Below, piece by piece: positions 1 through 26,554 of a DNA stretch of 64,000 bases. Where the stretch lies: the NCBI RefSeq assembly GCF_046105845.1, contig NZ_CP151004.1. One strand, written 5' to 3'. How positions within the stretch are numbered: the first letter of the stretch is position 1; every line of letters begins with the position of its first letter. The notes under the pieces are model-generated. The model was not told the DNA's origin. It did no database searches and was given only the letters and a program-made list of their open reading frames with translations. The position numbers and the translations under genes are program-made. Source of the stretch: Escherichia coli (GTDB lineage Bacteria; Pseudomonadota; Gammaproteobacteria; Enterobacterales; Enterobacteriaceae).

Positions 1-621
1 AAACCACTCTTCCCAGCCAGTAATACGGGTACTTTGATGCAGAAGTGGTAACTCTGTAAGCAGTTCTGCCACTGACAGTTTTTGATCGGACATTGTAAGC
101 AAACTGCCGCTGCATACCGGCAAAATCTCCTCTTCAAAGAGATATTCTACTTCCGCCCAGGGCGCGCAAAAATTTTCGCGCATAATGACAGCATCGTACT
201 CCCGATTAAGAAAATCGCCGTTATTAGCTAAAGAGTGAATATTAACAATAATATCGGAATGTAACTTTGTGAATTCATGTAAATTTGGGATTAACCAGTG
301 GGTACTAAACGTAGGATTCACGGCAAGTTCAATAACCTTAACCGTAGGCTGCCAGGTCATAATGGTATTGGTATCGCGTTCCAGCTTATTTAATGTTTCT
401 TTTACTATCCCCAGGTAATACTTCCCTGCATCATTAAGAAAAATACGTTTTTTAGAGTGTGAAAATAACGGAGTATGTAAAAATTCCTCCAGCGCACTCA
501 CTTGTCTGAATACTGCACTTTGGGTCAACGCTAACTCCTCTGCCGCTCTGGTATAACTTTCATGACGTGCGACGACCTCAAAAGTCACCAGCAGCTCCGT
601 TTTAGGTATTTTTCCTCGCAT
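1..621 (-). CDS. LysR-family transcriptional regulator, 3'-truncated by the window edge (about 207 N-terminal residues present)
   Basis: Not in the ORF track because it is incomplete. Reverse-strand ATG at 619-621 opens a frame translating MRGKIPKTELLVTFEVVARHESYTRAAEELALTQSAVFRQVSALEEFL..., with a typical LysR N-terminal winged-HTH followed by a co-inducer-domain-like region. Family assignment by eye. Confidence 0.7.
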   Translation of the reverse strand, partial: MRGKIPKTELLVTFEVVARHESYTRAAEELALTQSAVFRQVSALEEFLHTPLFSHSKKRIFLNDAGKYYLGIVKETLNKLERDTNTIMTWQPTVKVIELAVNPTFSTHWLIPNLHEFTKLHSDIIVNIHSLANNGDFLNREYDAVIMRENFCAPWAEVEYLFEEEILPVCSGSLLTMSDQKLSVAELLTELPLLHQSTRITGWEEWF

Positions 622-1185
622 AATGCCGTCCCTTAAAAATAGTTTAAACCATCAAAAATACATTACTTATTACGAAGTAATGGTAACCAAAGCAGCAATA
701 AATAATTTATAAGAATCATGATTGACATTTATAACCCAGTAAGCCTGGCGTGACAAATATCTTAATCAGATAATAATAATCCGAAAAGCACAGCGCCTTT
801 CGAATTATCCGGAATCACATTAAGTGAAAATTATTAAATTGATATCATTTATCATATCTGTGGATATTATGATAAACAATCAACAAAGATTTTATTTTTG
901 ATTTATAGCATATCCCTCTAAGAATTTTTGCGATGCTGCAATATCCGGGGTAAAGACCCGATCCTGGCTGACAAATGGCACGACTTGACGATAAGCGGTG
1001 AACATCGCTTTTGTTGATTTACTTAACGCTACGGTCAAACGCTGGGAAGCCAGTGCATCAGGTAACGATTCGAAATTCGCCGTCGTTCTTATTCGTGGCT
1101 TGCGGTCGGTTGCGGCAATCCACAGTGGCTGTGGTCATGCAGTCAAGCCAGCGGTCAGATTTCGACCGTGGTTAACATTTAAGGC

Positions 1186-1211
1186 ATAAAAAAGGCCATC
1201 ATATGATGGCC
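1186..1211 (-). terminator. Rho-independent terminator downstream of sucD
   Basis: Perfect hairpin GGCCATCATATGATGGCC (1194-1211) followed on the minus strand by a U-run (A-run 1188-1193 on plus). Confidence 0.75.
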
Positions 1212-1286
1212 AACCATGTCGAAACCGACAGCCCTTCGCCATTCCTGTAGAGGGAAGCGGCGAGGGCTATTTCTTATTACAGATAT
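1186..1286 (-). ncRNA. sdhX: Candidate SdhX (RybD) sRNA, the sucD 3'UTR ending at the sucD terminator
   Basis: Positional: in E. coli the sucD 3'UTR is processed into the sRNA SdhX. The interval between the sucD stop and the terminator is about 100 nt. Sequence identity was not checked. Confidence 0.45.
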
Positions 1287-2156
1287 TTATTTCAGAACAG
1301 TTTTCAGTGCTTCACCGATATCCGCCAGGCTGCGAACGGTTTTCACGCCTGCGGCTTCCAGAGCAGCGAATTTCTCATCCGCAGTCCCTTTCCCACCGGC
1401 AATGATCGCACCCGCGTGGCCCATACGTTTGCCTTTCGGCGCAGTCACACCAGCGATGTAACCCACAACAGGCTTGGTAACGTGCTCTTTGATGTACGCA
1501 GCCGCTTCTTCTTCAGCGCTACCGCCGATCTCACCGATCATCACGATCGCTTCGGTCTGCGGATCTTTTTCGAACATTTCGAGGATGTCGATAAAGTTAG
1601 AGCCAGGGATCGGGTCGCCGCCGATACCGACACAGGTCGACTGACCGAAACCGTAATCCGTGGTCTGTTTAACCGCTTCATAGGTCAGTGTACCGGAACG
1701 GGAAACGATACCCACTTTACCCGGTTTGTGAATGTGACCCGGCTGGATACCGATTTTGCATTCACCCGGAGTGATTACGCCCGGACAGTTCGGGCCGATC
1801 ATACGAACGCCTGCTTCATCCAGTTTCACTTTCACGGTCAGCATATCCAGCGTCGGGATGCCTTCAGTGATGGTGATAATCAGTTTGATGCCTGCATCGA
1901 TGGCTTCCAGAATGGAGTCTTTGCAGAACGGTGCTGGTACGTAGATAACAGAAGCGGTAGCGCCAGTAGCAGCAACAGCTTCACGAACGGTGTTGAACAC
2001 CGGCAGGCCGAGGTGGGTGGTGCCGCCTTTACCTGGGGTTACGCCGCCAACCATTTTAGTGCCGTATGCAATAGCCTGTTCTGAGTGGAAAGTCCCCTGG
2101 CTACCGGTAAAGCCCTGGCAGATAACCTTGGTGTTTTTATCAATTAAAATGGACAT
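1287..2156 (-). CDS. sucD: Succinyl-CoA synthetase alpha subunit
   Basis: 289-aa [48 protein letters not shown]...; CoA-binding and phospho-His region recognisable. Its start overlaps the sucC stop. Confidence 0.97.
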
Positions 2157-3322
2157 TATTTCCCCTCCACTGCGGCAACAACCTGCTGAGCTGCATCCGT
2201 CAGACCTTTTGCTGCAATAATATTCAGGCCGCTGTCAGCCAGTTTCTTCGCGCCGAGTTCGGCGTTGTTACCTTCCAGACGTACCACGACCGGTACGTTA
2301 ACACCCACTTCCGCTACCGCGCCGATGATACCGTCAGCGATCAGGTCGCAACGAACGATACCGCCGAAGATGTTAACCAGAACGGCTTTCACTTTGTCGT
2401 CAGAGAGGATGATTTTGAACGCTTCGGTTACACGTTCTTTGGTTGCGCCGCCGCCAACGTCAAGGAAGTTAGCTGGTTCGCCGCCGTGCAGTTTAACGAT
2501 GTCCATCGTACCCATCGCCAGACCTGCGCCGTTAACCATACAACCGATGTTACCGTCCAGCGCAACGTAGTTCAGTTCCCACTGTGCAGCCTGTGCTTCA
2601 CGTGGATCTTCCTGCGACTGGTCACGCATTTCGCGCAGATCAGGCTGGCGGAACAGTGCGTTGCCATCAGCGCCCAGTTTGCCGTCGAGGCAAATCAGAT
2701 CGCCCTGTTTGGTGATGACCAGCGGGTTGATTTCGATCAGCGCCAGGTCGCGCTCCAGGAAAATGGTCGCCAGGCCCATGAAGATTTTGGTGAACTGCTG
2801 AACCAGTTTACCTTCCAGACCCAGTTTGAACGCCAGCTCGCGTCCCTGATACGGCATCGGGCCAGTCAGCGGATCAAGCGCAACTTTGTGGATCAGGTGC
2901 GGAGTTTCTTCCGCCACTTTTTCGATTTCCACGCCGCCTTCGGTGGAGGCCATAAAGACCACACGACGGGAACTACGGTCAACAACGGCACCGAGATACA
3001 GCTCTTTAGCGATATCGGTCGCTGCTTCAACCAGAATCTGGTTAACCGGTTGGCCATTGGCATCTGTTTGATACGTTACCAGACGCTTGCCCAGCCAGTT
3101 TTCTGCAAAAGCACGGATGTCTTCTTTGCTGTTTACAACTTTCACACCGCCCGCTTTACCGCGGCCACCAGCGTGAACCTGACATTTCACTACCCACGGA
3201 CCGGCACCGATTTTTGAAGCGGCTTCTTCTGCTTCGCGCGGAGTAGTACAGGCATAACCCACCGGTGCTGGTAAGCCATAGCGGGCAAAAAGTTGTTTTG
3301 CCTGATATTCATGTAAGTTCAT
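2156..3322 (-). CDS. sucC: Succinyl-CoA synthetase beta subunit
   Basis: 388-aa [42 protein letters not shown]... (ATP-grasp). Confidence 0.97.
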
Positions 3323-3415
3323 GTGTTCTGTCCATCCTTCAGTAATCGTTATCTTTTAAACCGTAGACCGACACCCTATCCACGTCGGTCTACAGTGCAG
3401 GTGAAGCTTAAACTA

Positions 3416-4633
3416 CTACACGTCCAGCAGCAGACGCGTCGGATCTTCCAGCAACTCTTTGATCGTTACCAGGAAGCCCACGGATTCGCGACCATCGATC
3501 AGACGGTGATCGTAGGACAGCGCCAGGTACATCATCGGCAGGATCTCAACCTGACCATTCACCGCCATCGGACGATCTTTGATAGCGTGCATACCCAGAA
3601 TTGCGCTCTGCGGCGGGTTGATGATAGGCGTTGACATCAGGGAACCGAACACACCACCGTTGGTGATGGTGAAGTTACCACCGGTCAGATCTTCAACCGT
3701 CAGCTTGCCGTCACGGCCTTTAACTGCCAGCTCTTTGATTTTCTTCTCGATATCTGCCATGCCTAGGGTATCGACATCACGCAGTACCGGCGTCACCAGG
3801 CCGCGCGGCGTAGAAACCGCCATGCTGACGTCGAAATAGTTGTGGTAAACCACATCATCGCCGTCGATAGACGCGTTCACTTCCGGGTAACGTTTCAGGG
3901 CTTCAACCACCGCTTTCACGTAGAAGGACATAAAGCCCAGACGAATACCGTGACGTTTTTCAAACGCTTCACCGTACTGCTTACGCAGATCCATAATCGG
4001 CTTCATGTTGACTTCGTTGAACGTGGTCAGCATGGCGGTGGAGTTTTTCGCTTCCAGCAGACGCTCTGCCACACGCTTACGCAGGCGAGTCATCGGGACA
4101 CGTTTTTCGCTACGTGCAGCCAGAGCCGGTTGCGCCACCGGAGCAGCCGCTGCCGGAGCAGACTCTTTCGCCGGGGCTTTCGCCAGATGTTTTTCCACAT
4201 CTTCACGAGTCAGACGACCACCCACACCGGTGCCTTTAATGGCGCTGGCGTCGAGGTTGTGTTCAGCCAGCATGCGGCGGATCGCCGGGCTTAACGCATC
4301 GTTGTTTTGCTCTTCCAGAGACGCCTGCTGGCGTTGCGCCGGAGTGGACGCTTTCTCTTCAGATTTGGCGCTGGTTTCTTTACCCGCGCTGTTGCCTTCA
4401 CGCAGGCGACCAAGGATTTGACGAGACGTTACCGTTGTACCTTCATCTTCCAGAACCGCATCCAGAATGCCGTCTGCTGATGCCGGTACTTCCAGTACCA
4501 CTTTGTCAGTTTCGATTTCTACCAGCACTTCATCACGTACGACTGCGTCGCCGGGTTTTTTATGCCAGGTTGCGACGGTGGCATCGGCTACGGATTCAGG
4601 CAGGTCAGGGACCAGAATATCTACGCTACTCAT
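3416..4633 (-). CDS. sucB: 2-oxoglutarate dehydrogenase E2, dihydrolipoyllysine-residue succinyltransferase
   Basis: 405-aa ORF with N-terminal lipoyl domain ([12 protein letters not shown]), Ala/Pro linker and C-terminal acyltransferase core (DHRLIDG). Confidence 0.97.
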
Positions 4634-4647
4634 TGTGTATCCTTTAT

Positions 4648-7449
4648 TTATTCGACGTTCAGCGCGTCATTAACCAGATCTTGTTGCTGTTTCTGGTGAA
4701 CGGACATATACCCTACCGCCGGAGAGGCGGAGGCCGGGCGGCCTGCATAACGCAGAGAAGCCCCAAACGGAATCACTTCACGGAAATGATGCTGGCTGCA
4801 GTACCATGCGCCCTGGTTGAGCGGCTCTTCCTGGCACCAGACAAAATCCTTGACGTGAGCAAACTGCTGCAACACTTCCTGCATCGCTTTATGCGGGAAC
4901 GGGTAGAGTTGCTCGATACGCACAATGGCGACATCGTGTTGATTGTTCTTACGACGTTGTTCCAGCAGGTCGTAATAAACCTTACCAGAACACATCACTA
5001 CACGCTTAACGCCCTTCGGATCAAGCTCGTCGATTTCACCGATGGCTGGCAGGAAGGTGCCGTTCGCCAGTTCTTCGAGGCTGGAAACCGCCAGCGGATG
5101 ACGCAGCAGGGATTTCGGCGACATCACGACCAGCGGACGACGCATCCCGCGCAGCGCCTGACGACGCAGCATGTGGTAAACCTGTGCCGGGGTAGACGGT
5201 ACGCACACCTGCATGTTTTGCTCAGCGCAAAGTTGCAGATAACGTTCCAGACGCGCGGAGGAGTGCTCCGGCCCCTGCCCTTCGTAACCGTGCGGCAGCA
5301 ACATCACCAGACCACACATCCGGCCCCATTTCTGTTCGCCAGAGGAGATGAACTGGTCGATAACCACCTGAGCACCGTTAGCGAAGTCACCGAACTGTGC
5401 TTCCCAGATAGTCAGAGTGCGTGGTTCTGCGGTGGCATAACCGTATTCAAACGCCAGCACGGCTTCTTCTGACAGTACGGAGTCCCAGACACGAAACGCG
5501 CCCTGACCGTTATGGATGTGTTGCAGCGGCGTGTAAGTGGAACCGTTAGACTGGTTGTGGATCACCGCGTGGCGGTGGAAGAAGGTACCGCGACCGGAGT
5601 CTTCACCCGACAGGCGAACCGGAATGCCTTCGTCAACCAGCGTGGCGTAAGCGAGGTTTTCCGCGCCGCCCCAGTCGAACAGTTTCTCACCAGCTGCCAT
5701 CGCCTGGCGATCGCCATAAATCTTGGCAACGCGAGACTGCATTTCAACTGCTTCCGGCACCGTGCTGATGCGTTTAGCCAGTTCCTGCAGGCGCTTCATC
5801 TCAACTTTGTTCGGGTACTCTTCGTCCCATTCGTGGTTGAGGTACGGCGACCAGGTGAAAGAGTGCATGTTCATCGGACGCCACTCTGCCACTACGCAAT
5901 CGCCAGCATCCAGCGCATCGCGGTACAGGTTAACCATCTCGGTGGCATCTTCGAGCGTCGCCACTTTTTCTTGCTCCAGCTTGTCAGCGTAGATTTTGCG
6001 CGGCGTCGGATGTTTTTTGATTTTCTGATACATCAGCGGCTGAGTTGCGCTCGGCTCGTCGGCTTCGTTATGGCCATGACGGCGGTAGCACACCAGGTCG
6101 ATGAAGACATCACGTTTAAAGGTGTTACGGAAATCGAGCGCCAGACGGGTCACAAAGGCAACGGCTTCCGGATCATCCGCGTTAACGTGGAAAATCGGTG
6201 CCTGAACCATCTTACCGATATCAGTACAGTACGGCGTCGAACGGGCATCCAGCGGGTTAGAGGTGGTGAAGCCAACCTGGTTGTTGATAACGATACGTAC
6301 CGTACCGCCAACTTCATAACCACGCGCTTTCGACATGTTCAGGGTTTCCTGAACCACGCCCTGCCCGGTCACTGCGGCGTCACCATGAATGGTGATTGGC
6401 AGCACTTTGTTGCTGCTCGGCTCATCAAGTCTGTCCAGACGGGCACGAACAGAACCGATAACGACCGGGCTTACAATCTCAAGGTGAGACGGGTTAAACG
6501 CCAGCGCCAGGTGCACCAGGCCGCCATCGGTCTGGAAGTCAGACGAGAAGCCCATGTGGTATTTCACGTCGCCCGTGCCGAGGTGTTCTTTATGTTTACC
6601 GGCAAACTCGTCGAACAAGTCTTGCGGTTTTTTACCCAGCACGTTCACCAGCACGTTCAGACGGCCACGGTGCGCCATCCCGAGAACCACTTCGCGGGTG
6701 CCGCTGTTGCCAGCGTGGCGGATCATCTCTTTAAGCATCGGGATTAACGCGTCACCGCCTTCCAGCGAGAAGCGTTTTGCGCCAGGGAATTTTGCGCCGA
6801 GGTAACGTTCAAGGCCTTCAGCGGCGGTCAGTTCGCTTAAGAAGCGTTTTTTCTCTTCGCTATTGAAAGTCGCGCGACCAGACTCGATACGCTGTTGGAT
6901 CCAGCGTTTTTCTTCGGTGCTGGTAATATGCATATACTCGGCACCAATCGGGCCGCAGTAGGTTTGCTTGAGGGCTTCCAGCAGCTCGCCGAGTTTCATG
7001 GTTTCTTTGCCGCTGGCAAATGAACCGACGTTGAAGGTCTCCTGGAAGTCTGCTTCGGTCAGATCGTGGAAAGACGGATCCAGATCGGCCACTTTATCTT
7101 GCTGCCACAGTCCCAGCGGATCGAGATTCGCATGCTGGTGACCACGGAAGCGGTATGCGTTAATGAGCTGCAGGACTTTAACCTGCTTCACATTGGTGTC
7201 AGGGTCGGAGATCGTTGAAGAGTAACGTGAAGCGTCTTTCGCCAGGCGGCGGAAATATTCACGCGTTTGAGAGTGGAATTGATCCGGTTTGACTCCCGTA
7301 CCAGGTAACTGCTGGAACGTCGAACGCCAGTTAGCGTCAACCGAGTCAGGATCGGTTAAGAAGTCTTCATAGAGCTGTTCTATCCAGCTCTGGTTTGCGC
7401 CAGAGAGGTAAGAAGAGTCCAACCAGGCTTTCAAAGCGCTGTTCTGCAT
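4648..7449 (-). CDS. sucA: 2-oxoglutarate dehydrogenase E1 component
   Basis: 933-aa [41 protein letters not shown]...; ThDP-dependent E1. Confidence 0.97.
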
Positions 7450-7616
7450 CGTGATCCCTTAAGCATCTTTTTTATGCTTACTTCGCCGTGGATACTACCA
7501 CGCACAGTGATGTGCGTGCCGGGGTTCACTTGCGAGCTCTTGTCTACGTAGTGGCTCGCGAAGGAACCTTTAAAAACTGTCTTAGTGTCAGGGGCAGTTT
7601 TTAAAGATTTCCTGAA

Positions 7617-7640
7617 TAGCCGGGGGATTTCCCCGGCATC
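7617..7640. terminator. Hairpin at the sdhB 3' end (possible partial terminator or attenuator between the sdh and suc transcripts)
   Basis: GCCGGGGgatttCCCCGGC inverted repeat at 7619-7637 immediately after the sdhB stop; only a weak U-run follows on the minus strand. Confidence 0.4.
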
Positions 7641-7649
7641 AACATTTAA

Positions 7650-8366
7650 TTACGCATTACGTTGCAACAACATCGACTTGATATGGCCGATGGCGCGCGT
7701 CGGGTTCAGCCCCTTCGGACATACACTGACGCAGTTCATGATGCTGTGACAGCGGAATACACTGAATGCATCGCTCAAACCGTCGAGGCGGCTGTCAGTC
7801 TCGGTATCACGGCTATCGATCAGGAAACGATATGCCGCTAACAAGCCTGCCGGGCCGATAAACTTATCGGGATTCCACCAGAAAGACGGACAAGAGGTTG
7901 AACAACATGCGCAGAGAATACATTCATACAGCCCGTCGAGTTTTTCGCGCTGCTCTGGCATCTGTAAATGCTCGCGAGCTGGCGGATTTTGTCCATTATT
8001 CAACAGGTAAGGCTTAATTTTCTCATATTGCGCATAGAATTGTCCCATGTCTACCACCAAATCGCGGATCACCGGTAAACCTGGCAGCGGGCGAATCACA
8101 ATCTTCTTGCCCGGCTGGTTGAGTGCCGAAATCGGGGTAATACAGGCCAGACCATTCTTGCCGTTCATGTTCAGACCGTCGGAACCGCACACACCTTCAC
8201 GGCAGGAGCGACGGAACGACAGGCTGGGATCTTTCTCTTTCAGCTGGATAAGCGCATCCAGCAGCATCATGTCACGACCTTCTTCCGCTTCCAGGGTGTA
8301 ATCCTGCATACGCGGAGCATCATCAACATCCGGGTTATAGCGATAAATTGAAAACTCGAGTCTCAT
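7650..8366 (-). CDS. sdhB: Succinate dehydrogenase iron-sulfur subunit
   Basis: 238-aa ORF MRLEFSIYRYNPDVDDAPRMQDYTLEAEEGRDMMLLDALIQLKEKDPSLSFRRSCREGVCGSDG...; Cys clusters for the 2Fe-2S, 4Fe-4S and 3Fe-4S centres. Confidence 0.97.
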   Translation of the reverse strand: MRLEFSIYRYNPDVDDAPRMQDYTLEAEEGRDMMLLDALIQLKEKDPSLSFRRSCREGVCGSDGLNMNGKNGLACITPISALNQPGKKIVIRPLPGLPVIRDLVVDMGQFYAQYEKIKPYLLNNGQNPPAREHLQMPEQREKLDGLYECILCACCSTSCPSFWWNPDKFIGPAGLLAAYRFLIDSRDTETDSRLDGLSDAFSVFRCHSIMNCVSVCPKGLNPTRAIGHIKSMLLQRNA

Positions 8367-8381
8367 TTTCCTGTCTCCGCA

Positions 8382-10148
8382 TTAGTAAGTACGAATCTTC
8401 GGCGGGAATGCCGGGCGCAGTTTCGGTTCCATGTTGACGCTTCGGCGCGTCATGGATTCCGACTCTGGCAGATACAGGGAGTGGCACAGCCAGTTTTCAT
8501 CATCACGATCCGGGAAGTCGAAGCGGCTATGCGCGCCACGGCTTTCGGTACGGAAGTTGGCAGAAACAGCCGTTGCATACGCCGTTTCCATCAGGTTATC
8601 CAGTTCCAGGCACTCAACGCGCTGGGTGTTGAACTCGCTGGAAGTGTCATCCAGACGGGCATTTTTCAGACGCTCGCGGATCACTTTCAACTGCTCAAGC
8701 CCTTTCGCCATCGCATCACCTTCACGGAAGACCGAGAAGTTATGCTGCATACATTCTTGCAGCGCTTTACGAATCGCCACCGGATCTTCACCGTTACGAT
8801 TATTGTTCCAGCGGTTCAGACGATCCAGAGACGCTTCAACATCAGACTCGCTGGCATCGCGCAGTGCGCCCTGCTCGGCGATAGACTCTTGCAGATGCAG
8901 ACCTGCCGCACGACCAAAGACCACCAGGTCCAGCAGCGAGTTGCCGCCCAGACGGTTAGCGCCGTGTACCGATACACAAGCGATTTCACCAACGGCAAAC
9001 AGCCCCGGAACCACCACATCTTCGCCTTTCTCGTTCACAGTCAGCGCCTGACCGGTCACTTTGGTCGGAATACCGCCCATCATGTAGTGACAGGTTGGGA
9101 TAACCGGAATCGGCTCTTTCACCGGATCAACGTGAGCGAAGGTACGGGAGAGTTCCAGGATACCCGGCAGACGGGATTCGAGAACTTCTTTACCCAGGTG
9201 GTCAAGTTTCAGTTTTGCGTGTGGCCCCCACGGACCATCACAGCCGCGACCTTCACGGATTTCGATCATGATGGAACGCGCCACCACGTCACGGCCCGCC
9301 AGGTCTTTGGCGTTCGGCGCATAACGCTCCATAAAGCGTTCGCCATGTTTGTTCAGCAGATAACCGCCTTCACCACGGCAACCTTCGGTGACCAGTACGC
9401 CCGCTCCTGCAATGCCGGTCGGGTGGAACTGCCACATTTCCATATCCTGTACTGGTACGCCTGCACGGATAGCCATGCCGACGCCGTCGCCAGTGTTAAT
9501 GTGGGCGTTGGTGGTGGACTGATAAATACGCCCTGCCCCGCCAGTCGCCAGCACGGTAGCGCGGGCTTTGAAATAAACCACTTCACCAGTTTCGATGCAC
9601 AGTGCGGTACAACCGACCACCGCGCCATCGGCGTTTTTCACCAGATCCAGCGCATACCATTCGGAGAAAATAGTGGTGTGGTTTTTCAGGTTCTGCTGAT
9701 AAAGGGTGTGCAACAGTGCGTGACCGGTACGGTCAGCTGCCGCCGCAGTGCGTGCCGCCTGCTCGCCGCCGAAGTTTTTCGACTGGCCGCCAAACGGACG
9801 TTGATAGATACGACCATCATCAAGGCGCGAGAACGGCAGGCCCATGTGTTCGAGCTCCAGAATCGCTTCCGGCCCGGTTTTACACATATATTCAATCGCG
9901 TCCTGGTCACCGATATAGTCCGAACCTTTTACGGTGTCGTACATATGCCATTCCCAGTTATCTTCATGGGTATTACCCAGCGCAACGGTAATGCCGCCTT
10001 GCGCAGAAACGGTATGGGAACGGGTCGGGAAGACTTTAGAGAGCAGCGCACAGGTCTGACCGCTCTGGGAAATTTGCAGCGCCGCGCGCATACCTGCGCC
10101 ACCGGCACCAATCACAACTGCATCAAATTCTCTGACTGGCAATTTCAT
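8382..10148 (-). CDS. sdhA: Succinate dehydrogenase flavoprotein subunit
   Basis: The track ORF (8382..10160) begins [23 protein letters not shown]...; start trimmed to the ATG giving MKLPVREF (588 aa), overlapping the sdhD stop by 1 nt. FAD-binding GxGxxG present. Confidence 0.95.
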
Positions 10149-10495
10149 CACACACCCCACACCACAACGAATCCATAAATCACGTAAACCACCAGTGCAA
10201 CGACAATCACCAGTTGCAGCATCAGGCGCAAAGCCAGCGGTTTAACGTAGTCGGTCAACACCTGCCACATGCCGATCCAGGCATGGATCAAGATAGAAAA
10301 CAGCGCCAGCAGGGTGAACACTTTGGTGAACGCAGAGGCGAAGAAACCGATCCAGACTTCATATGTCAGCTCGCCACTGGTAGCGAAAAAACCGACCATA
10401 TAAATGATGTAGAGCGTCAGGACGATAGCGGTAGCGCGAACGAGGATAAAATCATGTACGCCATTGCGTCCTAATGCGGAGGCGTTGCTTACCAT
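10148..10495 (-). CDS. sdhD: Succinate dehydrogenase hydrophobic membrane anchor subunit
   Basis: 115-aa [40 protein letters not shown]... Confidence 0.95.
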
Positions 10496-10878
10496 ACGAG
10501 GACTCCTGCGAGAAGTGAAAGCACGACAGTAATAACAAAGGAGATTTTGGCGGAGCGTTTACCCGCTTCGAATGTTTCTTCCAGATAGCCAAAATCCATC
10601 ATCATGTGGCGAATACCTACGACGACGTGATACGCCAGAGCGGTAAGGATGCCCCACATGATAAATTTGACGAAGAAGCTGCCCATAATCGCGGAAGCTT
10701 GCTCGAAACCTTCAGGGGAAGAGAGGCTGGTACCCAGAAGCCACAGCAGGATGCCCACTGCAACAAAGGTGATCACACCGGAAACGCGATGGAGAATGGA
10801 CGCTATCGCCGTGATGGGGAACCGGATGGTCTGTAGGTCCAGATTAACAGGTCTTTGTTTTTTCACATTTCTTATCAT
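10489..10878 (-). CDS. sdhC: Succinate dehydrogenase cytochrome b556 subunit
   Basis: The track ORF runs to 10893 ([15 protein letters not shown]...); start set at [34 protein letters not shown] (129 aa). Confidence 0.93.
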
Positions 10879-10893
10879 GAATAACGCCCACAT

Positions 10894-11586
10894 GCTGTTC
10901 TTATTATTCCCTGGGGACTACGGGCACAGAGGTTAACTTTCTGTTACCTGGAGACGTCGGGATTTCCTTCCTCCGGTCTGCTTGCGGGTCAGACAGCGTC
11001 CTTTCTATAACTGCGCGTCATGCAAAACACTGCTTCCAGATGCGAAAACGACACGTTACAACGCTGGGTGGCTCGGGATTGCAGGGTGTTCCGGAGACCT
11101 GGCGGCAGTATAGGCTGTTCACAAAATCATTACAATTAACCTACATATAGTTTGTCGGGTTTTATCCTGAACAGTGATCCAGGTCACGATAACAACATTT
11201 ATTTAATTTTTAATCATCTAATTTGACAATCATTCAACAAAGTTGTTACAAACATTACCAGGAAAAGCATATAATGCGTAAAAGTTATGAAGTCGGTATT
11301 TCACCTAAGATTAACTTATGTAACAGTGTGGAAGTATTGACCAATTCATTCGGGACAGTTATTAGTGGTAAACAAGTTTAATAATTCGGATTGCTAAGTA
11401 CTTGATTCGCCATTTATTCGTCATCAATGGATCCTTTACCTGCAAGCGCCCAGAGCTCTGTACCCAGGTTTTCCCCTCTTTCACAGAGCGGCGAGCCAAA
11501 TAACAAACGGGTAAAGCCAGGTTGATGTGCGAAGGCAAATTTAAGTTCCGGCAGTCTTACGCAATAAGGCGCTAAGGAGACCTTAA
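10894..11586. promoter_or_regulatory. Divergent gltA / sdhCDAB promoter region
   Basis: A 690-bp AT-rich gene-free interval between divergent gltA (+) and sdhC (-), which is the known arrangement in E. coli. Individual binding sites were not resolved. Confidence 0.6.
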
Positions 11587-12870
11587 ATGGCTGATACAAA
11601 AGCAAAACTCACCCTCAACGGGGACACAGCTGTTGAACTGGATGTGCTGAAAGGCACGCTGGGTCAAGATGTTATTGATATCCGTACTCTCGGTTCAAAA
11701 GGTGTGTTCACCTTTGACCCAGGCTTCACTTCAACCGCATCCTGCGAATCTAAAATTACTTTTATTGATGGTGATGAAGGTATTTTGCTGCACCGCGGTT
11801 TCCCGATCGATCAGCTGGCGACCGATTCTAACTACCTGGAAGTTTGTTACATCCTGCTGAATGGTGAAAAACCGACTCAGGAACAGTATGACGAATTTAA
11901 AACTACGGTGACCCGTCATACCATGATCCACGAGCAGATTACCCGTCTGTTCCATGCTTTCCGTCGCGACTCGCATCCAATGGCAGTCATGTGTGGTATT
12001 ACCGGCGCGCTGGCGGCGTTCTATCACGACTCGCTGGATGTTAACAATCCTCGTCATCGTGAAATTGCCGCGTTCCGCCTGCTGTCGAAAATGCCGACCA
12101 TGGCCGCGATGTGTTACAAGTATTCCATTGGTCAGCCATTTGTTTACCCGCGCAACGATCTCTCCTATGCCGGTAACTTCCTGAATATGATGTTCTCCAC
12201 GCCGTGCGAACCGTATGAAGTTAATCCGATTCTGGAACGTGCTATGGACCGTATTCTGATCCTGCACGCTGACCATGAACAGAACGCCTCTACCTCCACC
12301 GTGCGTACCGCTGGCTCTTCGGGGGCGAACCCGTTTGCCTGTATCGCAGCAGGTATTGCTTCACTGTGGGGACCTGCGCACGGTGGTGCTAACGAAGCGG
12401 CGCTGAAAATGCTGGAAGAAATCAGCTCCGTTAAACACATTCCGGAATTTGTTCGTCGTGCGAAAGATAAAAATGACTCTTTCCGCCTGATGGGCTTCGG
12501 TCACCGCGTATACAAAAATTACGACCCGCGCGCCACCGTAATGCGTGAAACCTGCCATGAAGTGCTGAAAGAGCTGGGCACCAAAGATGACCTGCTGGAA
12601 GTGGCTATGGAGCTGGAAAACATCGCGCTGAACGACCCGTACTTTATCGAGAAGAAACTCTATCCGAACGTCGATTTCTACTCTGGTATCATCCTGAAAG
12701 CGATGGGTATTCCGTCTTCTATGTTCACCGTGATCTTCGCTATGGCACGCACCGTTGGCTGGATCGCCCACTGGAGCGAAATGCACAGTGACGGTATGAA
12801 GATTGCCCGTCCGCGTCAACTGTATACAGGATATGAAAAACGCGACTTTAAAAGCGACATCAAGCGTTAA
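11587..12870 (+). CDS. gltA: Citrate synthase
   Basis: 427-aa [50 protein letters not shown]..., with catalytic His/Asp region ([14 protein letters not shown]). Confidence 0.97.
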
Positions 12871-12900
12871 TGGTTGATTGCTAAGCCGTTTACTTTCCGG

Positions 12901-12930
12901 ACCCGCCTTTAATAGAGCGGGTTCTTTTTT
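12901..12930 (+). terminator. Rho-independent terminator of gltA
   Basis: ACCCGC-ctttaataga-GCGGGT hairpin followed by TCTTTTTT. Confidence 0.75.
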
Positions 12931-13259
12931 ATATGGCTGAACATAATAAATTGTAAAAATTAAACCAGATGCAAATACCCATTAATAAGGTGAAAAAATG
13001 TGACAAGTCACATACTGAGCAGAATGATAAGTTTATTTTTATACTTTCATGCCGGTAGCATTGTTAACCCAATGAAAATCATGCATATCCATCCCACCCC
13101 ATCCTTCATCTCATTAAACAATAAATTTATGCACTCAATTATTCCATTCTTTATATAACAAGCTTTTTAATATTGTTAAATAAAACCAAATACATTCAAC
13201 TGTCAGTTAATATATTCTTGCCTCGCAACACTCTATCTCATTATTTAAAGGACTCAGCT

Positions 13260-13826
13260 ATGTTTAAAGGACAAAAAACATTGGCCGCACTGGCCGTATC
13301 TCTGCTGTTCACTGCACCTGTTTATGCGGCTGATGAAGGATCCGGTGAAATTCACTTTAAAGGTGAAGTTATTGAAGCACCGTGTGAAATACATCAGGAT
13401 GATATTGATAAAGAAGTTGAACTCGGTCAGGTGACCACCAGCCACATTAATCAGTCGCATCACAGCGATGCCGTTGCTGTCGACCTGCGCTTAGTCAACT
13501 GCGATCTGGAAAACTCCAACAACGGTTCCGGCGGCAAGATTTCTAAAGTTGCAGTCACCTTTGACAGCTCAGCGAAAACCACCGGCGCAGATCCGATTCT
13601 CAACAACACCAGCACGGGTGAAGCGACCGGTGTCGGCGTGCGTTTAATGAATAAAGATCAAAGCAATATCGTTTTAGGCACCGCTACTCCAGATATCGAC
13701 CTGGCACCAACCTCCAGCGAACAAACGTTAAATTTCTTTGCGTGGATGGAACAAATTGATCAGGCTACGCCCGTAACACCAGGCGCAGTTACGGCGAATG
13801 CGACCTACGTACTGGATTATAAATAA
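13260..13826 (+). CDS. ybgD: Fimbrial major subunit-like protein (chaperone-usher pathway)
   Basis: Start chosen at MFKGQKTLAALAVSLLFTAPVYA (signal peptide) with an AGGA RBS upstream; 188 aa; C-terminal YVLDYK donor-strand-like tail. The track ORF begins further upstream at 13173. Confidence 0.88.
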   Translation: MFKGQKTLAALAVSLLFTAPVYAADEGSGEIHFKGEVIEAPCEIHQDDIDKEVELGQVTTSHINQSHHSDAVAVDLRLVNCDLENSNNGSGGKISKVAVTFDSSAKTTGADPILNNTSTGEATGVGVRLMNKDQSNIVLGTATPDIDLAPTSSEQTLNFFAWMEQIDQATPVTPGAVTANATYVLDYK

Positions 13827-13876
13827 GTATCACTTTGGCGGCGTCATCGCCGCCTTTCTTCAAATATTTATCAGGT

Positions 13877-16336
13877 ATGGACACCGTGAATATTTATCGA
13901 CTCTCTTTTATATCCTGCCTGGTCATGGCGATACCTTCCGCATTGGCGGTCGAATTCAACCTGAATGTCCTCGATAAATCGATGCGAGATCGCATTGATA
14001 TTTCATTATTAAAGGAAAAAGGGGGCATTGCTCCCGGTGAATATTTTGTTAGCGTTGCAGTAAATAACAACCAAATCAGTAACGGACAAAAAATTGACTG
14101 GAAAAAGAACGGTGACCAAACCATTCCGTGTATTAATGATTTACTGGTAGATAAATTTGGTTTAAAACCTGAAGTTCGTCAGTCGTTACCACGGTTAAAC
14201 CAGTGCGTCGATTTTAGCTCCCGGCCTGAAATTCTCTTCATTTTTGATCAGGCTAGCCAGCAACTGAATATCACTATTCCACAAGCCTGGCTGGCGTGGC
14301 ACTCAGATAACTGGACTCCCCCCTCAACATGGAAAGAAGGTGTCGCCGGCGTCCTGATGGATTACAACCTGTTTGCAAGCAGCTACCGCCCACAGGATGG
14401 TAGCAACAGCACTAACCTGAACGCCTATGGAACAGCCGGAATTAACGCCGGGGCATGGCGCTTACGCAGTGATTACCAGCTTAATAAGACCGATAGCGAA
14501 GATAACCATGACCAGTCAGGCGGAATATCGCGCACCTATCTTTTTCGTCCATTACCGCAATTAGGCTCTAAGTTAACCCTCGGCGAAACCGATTTCAGTT
14601 CCAATATTTTCGACGGCTTTTCTTATACCGGCGCGGCACTGGCAAGTGACGATCGGATGTTACCGTGGGAGCTACGCGGCTACGCCCCACAAATCAGCGG
14701 CATTGCACAAACCAACGCCACCGTCACCGTGAGTCACTCAGGGCGAGTTATTTACCAGAAAAAAGTCCCACCAGGTCCGTTTATCATTGATGACCTTAAT
14801 CAGTCCGTCCAGGGTACGTTGGATGTCAAAGTGACGGAAGAAGATGGTCGGGTGAACAATTTCCAGGTTTCGGCAGCATCGACGCCCTTCCTGACTCGCC
14901 AGGGACAGGTTCGCTATAAATTGGCCGCGGGTCAGCCACGGCCCTCCATGTCACATCAAACTGAAAATGAAACCTTTTTTAGCAATGAAGTTTCCTGGGG
15001 GATGCTGTCAAATACCTCGCTGTACGGCGGCCTGCTGATTTCGGGTGACGACTACCATTCTGCCGCAATGGGTATCGGGCAAAATATGCTCTGGCTTGGT
15101 GCATTGTCGTTTGATGTCACCTGGGCCAGTAGTCAGTTTGATACTCAGCAGGACGAGCGGGGCTTAAGTTACCGCTTTAATTACAGCAAACAAGTGGATG
15201 CCACTAACAGCACGATTTCGCTCGCCGCTTATCGCTTTTCAGATCGTCATTTTCACAGCTACGCCAACTATCTGGATCACAAATACAACGACAACGATGC
15301 GCAGGACGAAAAACAGACGATCAGCTTATCCGTGGGGCAACCGATTACCCCACTGAACCTCAATCTGTACGCCAACCTGCTGCATCAAACCTGGTGGAAT
15401 GCAGACGCCTCCACGACCGCCAACATCACGGCGGGTTTTAATGTTGATATTGGTAACTGGAGAGATATCTCGATCTCGACGTCATTCAATACAACCCATT
15501 ACGAAGATAAAGATCGCGACAATCAGATTTACCTGTCGATTTCGCTTCCCTTCGGTAACGGGGGGCGGGTCGGTTATGACATGCAAAACAGTAGTCAAAG
15601 CACCACGCACCGCATGTCGTGGAATGATACGTTGGATGAACGTAATAGCTGGGGCATGTCTACCGGACTGCAATCCGACCGTCCGGATAATGGAGCCCAG
15701 GTGAGCGGTAACTATCAGCACCTGAGTTCAGCGGGTGAGTGGGATATTTCTGGTACCTATGCCGCCAATGATTACAGTTCCGTCAGCAGCAGCTGGAGCG
15801 GTTCTTTCACGGCAACTCAATATGGTGCGGCGTTCCATCGTCGCAGCTCCACCAATGAACCACGTCTGATGGTCAGTACCGATGGCGTGGCAGATATTCC
15901 GGTTCAGGGCCATCTCGACTACACCAACCATTTTGGCATTGCGGTGGTGCCGTTGATTTCCAGTTATCAGCCTTCCACCGTGGCGGTGAACATGAATGAC
16001 TTACCCAACGGCGTAACAGTGGCAGAAAACGTTATCAAAGAAACGTGGATTGAAGGCGCGATAGGTTACAAATCACTGGCTTCCCGTTCCGGTAAAGACG
16101 TTAACGTCATCATTCGCAACGCCAGCGGTCAGTTCCCTCCCCTCGGTGCGGATATCCGCCAGGATGATAGCAGCATTAGCGTGGGGATGGTTGGCGAGGA
16201 AGGACACGCCTGGTTAAGTGGAGTCTCTGAAAATCAACAATTTACCGTGGTCTGGGGTGATAGCCAGCGTTGCTCGATCCATCTTCCTGAACATATGGAA
16301 GACACCGCAAATCGCCTGATTTTACCTTGTCATTAA
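13877..16336 (+). CDS. ybgQ: Fimbrial outer-membrane usher protein
   Basis: Large ORF (track: 13835..16336, 833 aa) with an usher-like N-terminal signal peptide MDTVNIYRLSFISCLVMAIPSALA. The exact start is uncertain (TTG 13835, ATG 13877 or GTG 13886). Confidence 0.88.
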   Translation: MDTVNIYRLSFISCLVMAIPSALAVEFNLNVLDKSMRDRIDISLLKEKGGIAPGEYFVSVAVNNNQISNGQKIDWKKNGDQTIPCINDLLVDKFGLKPEVRQSLPRLNQCVDFSSRPEILFIFDQASQQLNITIPQAWLAWHSDNWTPPSTWKEGVAGVLMDYNLFASSYRPQDGSNSTNLNAYGTAGINAGAWRLRSDYQLNKTDSEDNHDQSGGISRTYLFRPLPQLGSKLTLGETDFSSNIFDGFSYTGAALASDDRMLPWELRGYAPQISGIAQTNATVTVSHSGRVIYQKKVPPGPFIIDDLNQSVQGTLDVKVTEEDGRVNNFQVSAASTPFLTRQGQVRYKLAAGQPRPSMSHQTENETFFSNEVSWGMLSNTSLYGGLLISGDDYHSAAMGIGQNMLWLGALSFDVTWASSQFDTQQDERGLSYRFNYSKQVDATNSTISLAAYRFSDRHFHSYANYLDHKYNDNDAQDEKQTISLSVGQPITPLNLNLYANLLHQTWWNADASTTANITAGFNVDIGNWRDISISTSFNTTHYEDKDRDNQIYLSISLPFGNGGRVGYDMQNSSQSTTHRMSWNDTLDERNSWGMSTGLQSDRPDNGAQVSGNYQHLSSAGEWDISGTYAANDYSSVSSSWSGSFTATQYGAAFHRRSSTNEPRLMVSTDGVADIPVQGHLDYTNHFGIAVVPLISSYQPSTVAVNMNDLPNGVTVAENVIKETWIEGAIGYKSLASRSGKDVNVIIRNASGQFPPLGADIRQDDSSISVGMVGEEGHAWLSGVSENQQFTVVWGDSQRCSIHLPEHMEDTANRLILPCH

Positions 16337-24999: not shown

Positions 25000-25130
25000 G
25001 ATGCCTGATGCGACGCTTAATGCGTCTTATCAGGCCTGGATTTCCCTGCAATATATTGAATTTGCACTATTTGCCAGGCCGGAGAAGGCGTTCACGCAGT
25101 ATCCGGCATCCGGGCAAGATTGCCTGACGC
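25000..25130. repeat. REP (repetitive extragenic palindrome) cluster between convergent dtpD and phr
   Basis: GCCTGATGCGACGCTTAATGCGTCTTATCAGGCC and a second GCCGGA...TCCGGC unit; typical E. coli REP sequence. Confidence 0.75.
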
Positions 25131-25135
25131 GTCTG

Positions 25136-26554
25136 TTATTTCCCCTTCCTCGCCGCCTCATACGCTGCCAACGTTCGTACTCTCGCTTCTTTGTGATCGA
25201 CAATCGGTTGCGGATAATCCAGCGTCACACCTGATTTATCTGCCCACTTCCACGGCTCATGCACCGCTTTCCCTGGTACATCGCGCAACTCTGGTAGCCA
25301 CCGGCGGATAAACTCGCCTTCGCGGTCAAATTTCTCGCCCTGGGTTGTCGGGTTAAAAATACGAAAATACGGCGCTGCATCGGTTCCGGTTGAAGCGGCC
25401 CACTGCCAGCCACCGTTATTGGCTGCCAAATCACCATCAATCAGCTGCGACACGAAATATCGCTCGCCTTCGCGCCAGTCGATCAATAAATCTTTCACCA
25501 AAAAACTGGCTGTAATCATCCGTAGCCGGTTATGCATCCAGCCAGTGCTGTTAAGCTGACGCATGGCAGCATCAACAATCGGGTATCCCGTTTTACCTTC
25601 TTGCCAGGCTTTAAAATGGGCGGGATTGCGCTGCCACTGCACACGATCCGTCCAGACAATAAACGGACGATGTTTACACAGCGAAGGATAATACGTCATC
25701 AAATGGCGGTAGAACTCGCGCCAGATCAACTCATTAAGCCAGACACTACCGGCCCCATCTTCCAGCGCCTGCGGCTGTTCCGCCAACAGGCGATGTAGAC
25801 ACTGGCGAGGCGATAACCCGCCCGTTGCCAGGCTGGCGGACAAACGGCTGGTACCTTCAACTGCCGGAAAATCTCGTTGTTGCTCATACTCTCCGGCACC
25901 GTTCTGGCAAAACTGGCGTAATTGCGCAATCGCCGCTTTTTCTTCCACCGGGAAATGCGCAGTATCGAAAGGCTGACGAGGATAACTCAGCGTAATGGAT
26001 GGCGCGGGAGCTATCGATCCGCTACTACGTACTTTTGGCGCAGCGACGCACTCCGGCATCCCTTCCCGCAACCGTTTCAGCCAGGCGTTTTTAAATGGCG
26101 TAAAGACTTTGTACATCTCATGATTGCCAGTCATCACCGTCCCCGGCGGCAGGATCACGCTGTCGTCAAATCCTTCACACACCACGTTACGCAGCGTTCT
26201 CTCAACCTGCACATCCCGCGCCCGCTCATTCACCTCATACTGATAGTTATAAAAAAGATGAGTAACGCTGTTTTCCGCGCACACCTGTTTAACTATTTCG
26301 ACGCTGGCGGCAAAGTCATCCACTTCACGGAACAATAAAGGAATGCCTTTTTCCGCCAGCGCGATTTGTAGCCCATTCAGTTGAGCATTGATAAGTTCAG
26401 CCTGACGCGGCGACACATTATGCGCCGCCCACTGGCGTGGGGTAGCGATATACAACGCCAGCACGCGCGCAGACGAATTGCGGCAGGCGGCAGCCAGCGC
26501 GAGATTATCGTGCTGACGTAAATCCTGGCGAAACCAGACCAGATGGGTAGTCAT
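25136..26554 (-). CDS. phr: Deoxyribodipyrimidine photolyase
   Basis: 472-aa ORF MTTHLVWFRQDLRQHDNLALAAACRNSSARVLALYIATPRQWAAH...; FAD-binding C-terminal domain. Confidence 0.96.
   Translation of the reverse strand: MTTHLVWFRQDLRQHDNLALAAACRNSSARVLALYIATPRQWAAHNVSPRQAELINAQLNGLQIALAEKGIPLLFREVDDFAASVEIVKQVCAENSVTHLFYNYQYEVNERARDVQVERTLRNVVCEGFDDSVILPPGTVMTGNHEMYKVFTPFKNAWLKRLREGMPECVAAPKVRSSGSIAPAPSITLSYPRQPFDTAHFPVEEKAAIAQLRQFCQNGAGEYEQQRDFPAVEGTSRLSASLATGGLSPRQCLHRLLAEQPQALEDGAGSVWLNELIWREFYRHLMTYYPSLCKHRPFIVWTDRVQWQRNPAHFKAWQEGKTGYPIVDAAMRQLNSTGWMHNRLRMITASFLVKDLLIDWREGERYFVSQLIDGDLAANNGGWQWAASTGTDAAPYFRIFNPTTQGEKFDREGEFIRRWLPELRDVPGKAVHEPWKWADKSGVTLDYPQPIVDHKEARVRTLAAYEAARKGK

Follow-up and report, generated by a model that had tools for sequence, protein, structure and literature searches.

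The window analysed here, 64,000 nucleotides of Escherichia coli DNA (contig NZ_CP151004.1), begins within a gene for a LysR-family transcriptional regulator (LTTR); sucD, which has the same orientation, lies 665 bp upstream of it (Table 1). We studied the interval between these two genes, 622–1185, which extends exactly from the LysR start to the SdhX terminator; position 622 is the first base upstream of the LysR ATG. An earlier note on this DNA had described about 560 bp that were long for a gap, AT-rich and without a convincing gene. The length was indeed unusual inside the window: the other gaps of more than 400 bp between long ORFs were all shorter than 1.5 kb, and those that could be checked against the annotation of strain N3 hold small annotated genes. 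As a matter of statistics, 560 bp with no long ORF is unremarkable. The AT-richness applied to 622–891 (28.9% GC, with a lowest 100-bp trough of 23%) but not to 892–1185 (47.6% GC, against 51.9% for the whole window), and this break at 891/892 was the first sign that the interval consists of two pieces. Similarly, no intact gene was present, but 892–1186 proved to be recognisable coding debris from two genes.

Table 1. Features of the interval between LysR and sucD and of its flanks (window positions).
Feature	Position	Strand	Basis and details
LysR-family regulator (LTTR), 5' part	1–621	−	start codon ATG 619–621; gene runs past the window start
AT-rich spacer	622–891	−	matches the 270-bp hutH–LysR intergenic region of intact loci
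LysR leader / proximal block	622–660	−	Shine-Dalgarno AAGGGA 629–634; T-rich block TTTTTGATGGTTTAAACTATTTTT 635–659
Near-palindrome, 22 bp, CATTACTT-N6-AAGTAATG	661–682		sequence and alignment
Candidate sigma-70 promoter for LysR	728–756	−	−35 TTGTCA 756–751, 17-bp spacer, −10 TATAAA 733–728
Conserved hairpin	775–809	−	15-bp stem, 5-nt loop; about 85 nt downstream of the hutH stop codon
hutH (HAL-family) 3' relic, aa 511–556 plus stop 892–894	892–1029	−	tblastn 1032–895, 89% over 46 aa, E 3e-23; blastn colinear with the spacer
Deletion junction J1	about 1023–1029		348 bp lost; in-frame, within hutH; microhomology around 1023–1029
Internal hutH fragment, HAL aa 378–397	1024–1085	−	tblastn 1083–1024, 90% over 20 aa, E 9e-7; blastn 87% over 61–62 nt
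Deletion junction J2 (hutH fragment / rtcB fragment)	1078–1088		9,080 bp lost; hutH codon ~378 to rtcB codon ~375
Internal RtcB-family fragment, aa 375–398	1089–1145	+	tblastn 1087–1158, 75% over 24 aa, E 7e-11; blastn 91–96% over 57 nt against loci L004, L005 and L043
Deletion junction J3	1145/1146		173 bp lost; within rtcB, frameshifting
rtcB C-terminal relic, aa 451–465 plus TAA 1187–1189	1146–1189	+	tblastn 1142–1186, 87%, E 9e-6; blastn
Deletion junction J4	1184/1185		5,610 bp lost (mngB-mngA-mngR); penultimate rtcB codons to base after the mngR stop
sucD 3'UTR = SdhX sRNA	1188–1286	−	seed UUCGACAUGGU 1213–1223; terminator hairpin 1194–1211; U-run 1188–1193
sucD	1287–2156	−	ORF list

The right boundary is formed by SdhX (RybD), an sRNA derived from the sucD 3'UTR whose seed and architecture have been described (PMC6393394). 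In the window both its seed and its terminator are intact. The SdhX region folded at −41.3 kcal/mol (z −5.0), and its terminator, a G+C-rich hairpin of 7 bp, was also called by the terminator scan. SdhX adjoins the interval but lies outside it, and nothing in 622–1185 resembles it.

We compared window positions 560–1300 with 5,426 complete E. coli genomes by megablast. All of them matched from about 1180 onward (the sucD end and SdhX), whereas only 835 (about 15%) matched the whole query. In these carriers the interval was full-length at 94.8–100% identity and present in essentially one copy per genome, with a maximum of two. They include O157:H7, O55:H7 and O145:H28 genomes and an ST69 strain; in O157:H7 Sakai the equivalent coordinates are 841,515–842,180, where the Sakai plus strand corresponds to the minus strand of the window. 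Most RefSeq genomes have nothing annotated in the interval. In genomes of the K-12 type the match began at window 1180–1184, and the sequence to the left of that point was the mngR stop codon. A third class matched only 560–1020, at 88.5% identity, and in these genomes LysR was followed by a 270-bp spacer and then by the 3' end of a gene for a HAL/PAL/TAL ammonia-lyase, with which a histidine-utilisation (hut) cluster ends.

The fullest arrangement, in strain RM14723 (NZ_CP027103.1), reads LysR(−), then hutH, hutG, hutI, hutD, a permease gene and hutU (all −), rtcB(+), mngB, mngA(−), mngR(+) and sucD(−). Strain EC200461 has the same order with mngB-A-R missing, strain XJ5.2 has lost hut and kept rtcB and mng, and the K-12 type has only mngB-A-R and then sucD. 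In the window type the hut, rtcB and mng genes are all absent. The RM14723 hut-rtcB-mng locus and the hut-rtcB loci of EC200461 and FUJ80154 share with the window the same LysR, the 270-bp spacer, the position and orientation of hutH and rtcB, and the sucD flank; the window differs from the RM14723 locus in lacking 15.2 kb. In 144 of the complete genomes (2.7%), the 10.3-kb hut-rtcB segment is kept to at least 80%. Elsewhere in the family (Citrobacter, Salmonella, Klebsiella, Enterobacter, Buttiauxella and Lelliottia) the gap between sucD and LysR holds an AraC/PocR-like regulator with or without SumT. Across the Enterobacteriaceae, the cargo of the sucD–LysR site thus varies.

To place the window sequence on the intact locus, we used the proteins of that locus as tblastn queries against window positions 1–1400. 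LysR was 98% identical over aa 1–207. Its full-length orthologue carries the Pfam domains HTH_1 and LysR_substrate, and the annotations of strains 2012C-4221, N3 and Sakai (ECs_0755) likewise name the gene LysR. To the right of the spacer, two fragments of the HAL protein and two of RtcB were found in the ancestral order and on the expected strands (Table 1). In blastn comparisons with three independent loci, intact or partial, the same four pieces were recovered at 87–98% nucleotide identity, with the rtcB fragments at 91–97% to L004, L005 and L043. Each base of 892–1186 was accounted for by homology to hutH or rtcB. Thus a homology search of the interval, which the earlier note had named as the check that could overturn its reading, did return fragments of genes, but no conserved annotated gene.

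Neither gene is intact in the window. The intact HAL protein matches Pfam Lyase_aromatic (8e-123) over a domain of aa ~34–526; the window keeps about 66 of its 556 codons, with a longest in-frame ORF of 48 aa and no Pfam match. The intact RtcB protein (about 465 aa; Pfam RtcB, 3e-94) is represented by about 39 codons, in two frames and with a 173-bp deletion between them. These remains suggest that 892–1186 is non-functional debris. A consensus terminator scan also marked a weak plus-strand hairpin at 993–1010 within the hutH relic, which we regard as chance.

We read the deletion junctions base by base against RM14723. At least four deletions separate the two loci, and the four junctions total 15,211 bp. 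J2, the largest, removed the 5' two-thirds of hutH, all of hutG, hutI, hutD, the permease gene and hutU, and rtcB aa 1–374. The right half of the interval therefore consists of four colinear hutH and rtcB fragments left by deletion, and the rearrangement scar that had been among the possibilities listed for this DNA is what lies there. Two of the junctions could be compared with an intermediate. In Escherichia sp. E1V33, CGCCGTCG occurs twice, within hutH and again 186 bp away at the hutH/rtcB junction, and additional hutH sequence fills the space between the copies. In the window only one copy is present, at J2. Because E1V33 has two copies where the window has one, the window form corresponds to the E1V33 form minus one repeat unit, and a single copy is the product expected from slippage between repeats. 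Likewise, intact rtcB contains two direct repeats of CAGCCAGCG, 160 bp apart, of which E1V33 keeps one copy; at J3 the window has lost a further 13 bp relative to this single-copy form. The direct repeats at J2 and J3 are 8–9 bp long. These features are consistent with at least two deletions between 8–9-bp direct repeats, by replication slippage or by microhomology-mediated deletion.

A scan with the LysR protein of one genome per species (100,044 species representatives) revealed other Escherichia with different scars. E. whittamii retains hutH aa 453–556 and fragments of hutU; E1V33 retains hutH aa 314–441 and 528–556 together with the same rtcB fragments as the window; and Escherichia sp. 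MOD1-EC7003 retains intact rtcB and mngB, with only a degenerate hutH C-terminus. J4 was common to every scar type and to EC200461. Because some junction states are shared and others are specific to a lineage, the debris is the end product of several successive deletions, and such a mix of shared and lineage-specific deletions is the pattern predicted by neutral decay. The deletional bias of bacterial genomes reportedly leaves pseudogene relics of this sort. The window scar resembles them in its non-contiguous colinear fragments, its multiple nested deletions, the short direct repeats at several junctions, the different fragments kept by sister lineages, and the fact that PGAP mostly annotates nothing. 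We found no essential difference from such relics; all that sets the scar apart is that about 15% of complete E. coli genomes share it and that it abuts the SdhX terminator.

An interval at the border of accessory and core DNA, where K-12-type genomes match only from 1180–1184 onward, might also derive from a mobile element such as an IS, a MITE or a prophage end, as its remnant or as its insertion scar. However, a repeat search gave only short chance repeats, with neither terminal inverted repeats nor target-site duplications, and a tRNA/tmRNA scan of the interval found none. The sequence is single-copy in essentially every carrier genome, and hutH and rtcB homology explains all of 892–1186. 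The lack of terminal repeats, the single copy and the complete homology map led us to exclude a mobile origin, to which we attach a negligible probability.

The earlier note had also proposed an unannotated small protein. Three frames come into question: a hydrophobic 25-aa ORF at 824–901 (+), the 63-aa ORF at 998–1189 (+), and an 84-aa "hypothetical protein", WP_001309348.1, which is the equivalent of 892–1146 (−) and is called in some strains only. The note had singled out 998–1189 as the only ORF of at least 60 aa in the interval and judged it implausible. We agree on both points: the frame is a chance run over antisense hutH debris, only its final 15 codons being true rtcB codons, the last of that gene; it has no Pfam match, and we rejected it as a gene. 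In favour of the two others, 824–901 is open in five Escherichia variants and PGAP calls the 84-aa ORF in WP8-S17-ESBL-12 and several other strains. The 84-aa ORF, however, is chimeric, being made up of two hutH fragments and rtcB debris read in antisense, and its sole match is a weak one in NCBIfam to the HAL C-terminus. In the window it is cut by a TGA at 1135–1137, where the base is the ancestral one of intact rtcB. We regard the "hypothetical protein" of some RefSeq genomes as an annotation artefact. The substitutions in ORF 824–901 are nearly all nonsynonymous (for example, 5 versus 1, compared with 4 versus 10 in LysR). No ORF of the interval matched a Pfam family, and the portion of the supplement text of Huecker et al. 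2017 available to us (PMC5597208) lists no translated intergenic ORF at Sakai 8414xx–8422xx. A small protein is thus largely refuted, and we consider it very improbable.

We turn to the AT-rich half. Spacer 622–891 aligned with L004 and L005 without gaps, in colinear fashion and at 86.7% identity. Read on the LysR strand, it comprises the following elements in order from the hutH stop: an 85-nt AT-rich stretch, the hairpin, the promoter candidate, the near-palindrome, the T-rich block and the Shine-Dalgarno sequence, which stands seven bases before the LysR ATG. The LysR-proximal ~40 bp are the sole part of the spacer kept outside Escherichia, as seen in a 13-sequence alignment covering Citrobacter, Salmonella (arizonae and diarizonae), Klebsiella, Enterobacter, Buttiauxella and Lelliottia; blastn homology from other genera ended at window 623–663. 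The promoter candidate TTGTCA-17-TATAAA ranked second on the minus strand (PWM score 7.3), and both hexamers are kept in six Escherichia variants, though not in MOD1-EC7003. It would give LysR a leader of about 100 nt. A stricter consensus promoter scan returned no promoter on this strand and two promoter-like sites on the plus strand, which is the chance rate (2 found, 2.3 expected).

As long AT-rich non-coding DNA directly 5' of the gene, with dyad-symmetric sequences inside it, the spacer resembles the upstream regions of LTTR genes, in which autoregulatory sites and T-N11-A boxes occur; its dyads are the near-palindrome at 661–682 and an ATC-N9-GAT at 851–865. The latter lies about 230 bp from the LysR ATG, and we estimated about 0.1 chance occurrences of it in the AT-rich spacer. 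A difference is that no target operon is transcribed divergently from the window LTTR. Kronen & Berg (PMC4682846) list this LTTR within the methylaspartate/glutamate-fermentation cluster. In the intact-type allele, the 9-bp arms of the 661–682 palindrome form a perfect inverted repeat, 4 nt apart; in MOD1-EC7003 the palindrome is degraded. The even spacing of this palindrome means that it is not a T-N11-A box, so it was ruled out as a canonical LTTR site. Its RNA fold is weak (−6.2 kcal/mol, z −1.0); conceivable roles are those of an operator or of a 5'-UTR hairpin.

For the whole interval, the earlier note had also suggested that it might hold a promoter or silencer of LysR. This is plausible for the left half only, given the native LysR spacer, the ~40-bp block conserved across genera and the promoter candidate. 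Low-GC composition is typical of H-NS-bound DNA. The composition of the 270 bp and of its 100-bp trough, together with a position in an accessory island, would suit an H-NS-type silencer that represses LysR and the horizontally acquired cluster, and such a role is compatible with a promoter, the two not being exclusive. Any enterobacterial promoter or 3'-flank would be equally expected to be low in GC, however, and that silencing is the chief function of the AT-rich half seems to us possible but doubtful.

The most conspicuous element of the spacer is the hairpin at 775–809. It had a minimum free energy of −17.6 kcal/mol (z −3.9), and its orthologues were stronger still (−21.6 to −25.8 kcal/mol, z −5.4 to −6.8). 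A stem of 15–17 bp was conserved in all seven Escherichia variants. In the alignment of these seven sequences nearly every stem pair was kept, with one-sided (G-U) changes and a few broken positions; there were no double compensatory changes. Of the elements of an intrinsic terminator, the hairpin has the stable, G+C-containing stem-loop and lacks the 3' U-run, its tail being AUUAUCUGAUU. Because this T-run is absent, the hairpin was not called by a terminator scan that requires at least 5 T in 8. It probably served the hut operon, while that existed, as a terminator or 3'-end structure, and it is now probably the last barrier between sucD read-through and LysR.

The same stretch was examined for a small RNA, which the earlier note had likewise put forward. 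This could be a transcript of about 75–80 nt that runs from about 845 to about 766 and ends at the hairpin, or a former hutH 3'UTR-derived sRNA that was kept after the operon was lost. A second promoter candidate (−35 TTGTTT 879–874, −10 TATGAT 856–851) scores highest of all minus-strand candidates in the PWM scan (7.8), and the strongly conserved hairpin follows some 40 nt downstream of it; the entire 274-nt spacer folds better than shuffled sequences (z −4.2); and the adjoining sucD 3'UTR, itself an sRNA, provides an architectural precedent. However, Hfq-dependent sRNAs normally require a terminal U-run, which is missing after the hairpin. Scanning window positions 1–2500 on both strands with the covariance models of Rfam 15 (E ≤ 1) gave no matches, not even to SdhX. 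Positions 801–900 had diverged by 14 differences per 100 nt, like the rest of the spacer (about 13%), the TTGTTT and TATGAT hexamers are kept only partly in MOD1-EC7003, and promoter-like sites in this AT-rich DNA occur no more often than by chance. We also considered Esr41, an EHEC-restricted sRNA, as the occupant of the interval; it maps to OI-43, between z1181 and z1182. We concluded that an unannotated small RNA is improbable here.

A broader version holds that the hairpin and its AT-rich surroundings are more than a dead terminator, either as a retained regulatory RNA element (for example, the former hutH 3'UTR sRNA) or as an insulator that tunes read-through into LysR from the sdh-suc/SdhX transcript, whose expression is very strong. 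We give this a slim chance. If the insulator were real, the deletions would have rewired the glutamate-fermentation cluster to the expression of a TCA-cycle operon in about 15% of E. coli, O157:H7 included.

Taken together, these results make it very probable that the interval joins two unrelated pieces, namely the native upstream spacer of LysR (622–891) and deletion debris of hutH and rtcB (892–1186). In ancestral Escherichia loci the same 270 bp separates the LysR start from the hutH stop codon, with which the hut operon ends. The stem-loop at 775–809 most likely ended hut transcription, and the probable promoter, leader and ribosome-binding site of LysR lie downstream of it. At least four deletions, of about 15.2 kb in total, removed most of hutH, hutG, hutI, hutD, the permease gene, hutU, most of rtcB and mngB-mngA-mngR, and brought the rtcB end up against the sucD/SdhX terminator. 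That is, the locus represents ordinary operon decay beside the upstream region of a regulator, and it contains no new gene.

Our literature search found no paper on the hutH/rtcB scar. Its value is mainly for annotation, as about 15% of E. coli, O157:H7 included, show a conspicuous gap that is explained by two unannotated pseudogene relics, one of hutH and one of rtcB. With full, partial and scar states side by side in Escherichia, the locus is also a clean example of stepwise operon decay. It further indicates that E. coli lineages once had a histidine-utilisation cluster beside the methylaspartate cluster, which 2.7% of the genomes still have. The scar opens no new biological question.

Lastly, we compared the alleles on the two sides of the LysR start. 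Relative to intact-type loci, identity was 97.6% in LysR, 86.7% in the spacer and 86.4% in the hutH relic. Of the 18 nucleotide differences between the relic and the intact hutH allele, 12 fall at third codon positions. This bias indicates descent from a once-functional, diverged allele, and that most of the divergence arose while hutH was still under purifying selection. An intact hutH of the window-type allele was absent from the complete E. coli genomes searched, and a donor of the ~13%-diverged allele was not found among the 100,044 species representatives; all Escherichia relatives had the other hutH allele or a far more diverged one. The persistence of the scar across distant lineages at up to about 5% divergence could hint at some constraint, and is explained equally well by vertical inheritance with recombination. 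The contrast between 2.4% divergence in LysR and about 13% in the spacer and hutH relic points to a recombination boundary near the LysR start. Strain XDL, of the 94.8% class, is itself a recombinant: its LysR-proximal spacer is 100% intact-type, and its distal spacer is window-type.

Complete E. coli genomes in which the hut cluster appears intact, together with a second RtcB-family gene beside the methylaspartate cluster, numbered 144 of the 5,426 examined. The hut cluster in these genomes consisted of hutU, a cytosine-type permease gene, hutD, hutI, hutG and a HAL gene, whose 556-aa product scored under the cut-off of the NCBIfam hutH equivalog model. Descriptions of E. coli usually state that the species has no hut genes.

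Coordinates of features in the window and in comparison loci (L-numbers)
Feature	Sequence	Position	Strand	Details
Hydrophobic ORF, 25 aa	Window	824-901	+	MKIIKLISFIISVDIMINNQQRFYF; GTG start
SdhX sRNA in sucD 3'UTR	Window	1188-1286	-	Seed UUCGACAUGGU 1213-1223; terminator 1194-1211
Intact hut + RtcB-family locus	L005 (E. coli RM14723)	4271-14169
Intact hut + RtcB-family locus	L004 (E. coli EC200461)	1630-11538
Scar version	L008 (E. coli XDL)	1501-2062
Locus with hut deletion	L006 (E. coli XJ5.2)	597-4109
Frameshifted fumD	L001 (E. coli 2012C-4221)	8860-10511
sucD-LysR gap cargo	L018 (Salmonella diarizonae)	8758-9645
sucD-LysR gap cargo	L030 (Klebsiella grimontii)	8913-9617
sucD-LysR gap cargo	L020 (Citrobacter)	7923-9595

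Other E. coli strains carried further forms of the locus. The scar of strain XDL was found at 94.8% identity; its LysR-proximal spacer was the intact-type allele (100% identity), whereas its distal spacer and relic were window-type. The XDL version is thus a recombinant that arose by a crossover within the spacer, near window position ~750. The hut deletion of strain XJ5.2 is an independent event, reaching to within 18 bp of the LysR ATG on the upstream side. In that strain LysR was re-annotated as 4 codons shorter, and fumD of the same cluster was truncated beside an IS1 element; the entire cluster appears to be decaying. Among the closest matches to the interval was strain 2012C-4221 (99.9% over window 560-1300), in which the methylaspartate-cluster fumD (class I fumarate hydratase/mesaconase), a region lying outside the window, was annotated as frameshifted.

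In the window, the scar is immediately adjoined by the SdhX sRNA, which is intact, and a search of Rfam 15 gave no match to it even at E≤1. The small ORF at 824-901 was open in five Escherichia variants; the substitutions within it were nearly all nonsynonymous, and the ORF is therefore probably just a side effect of the AT-rich composition. Elsewhere in the window, the megablast alignment with strain N3 breaks at 25036-25142, where ~107 bp separating the homologues of dtpD and phrB have no counterpart in that strain.

Across genera, the sucD-LysR gap is a site of variable cargo. Salmonella diarizonae, Klebsiella grimontii and Citrobacter each had, inside the gap, an AraC-type regulator whose N-terminal part is PocR-like, and Citrobacter had a SumT-like methyltransferase as well. 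The metagenome-assembled genome 'Citrobacter sp.' HRGM_Genome_0066 contained two LysR loci (L010 and L015). One of these, 99% E. coli-like, includes a complete hut operon; its counterpart is Citrobacter-like (87%). This assembly looks like a mixed bin.
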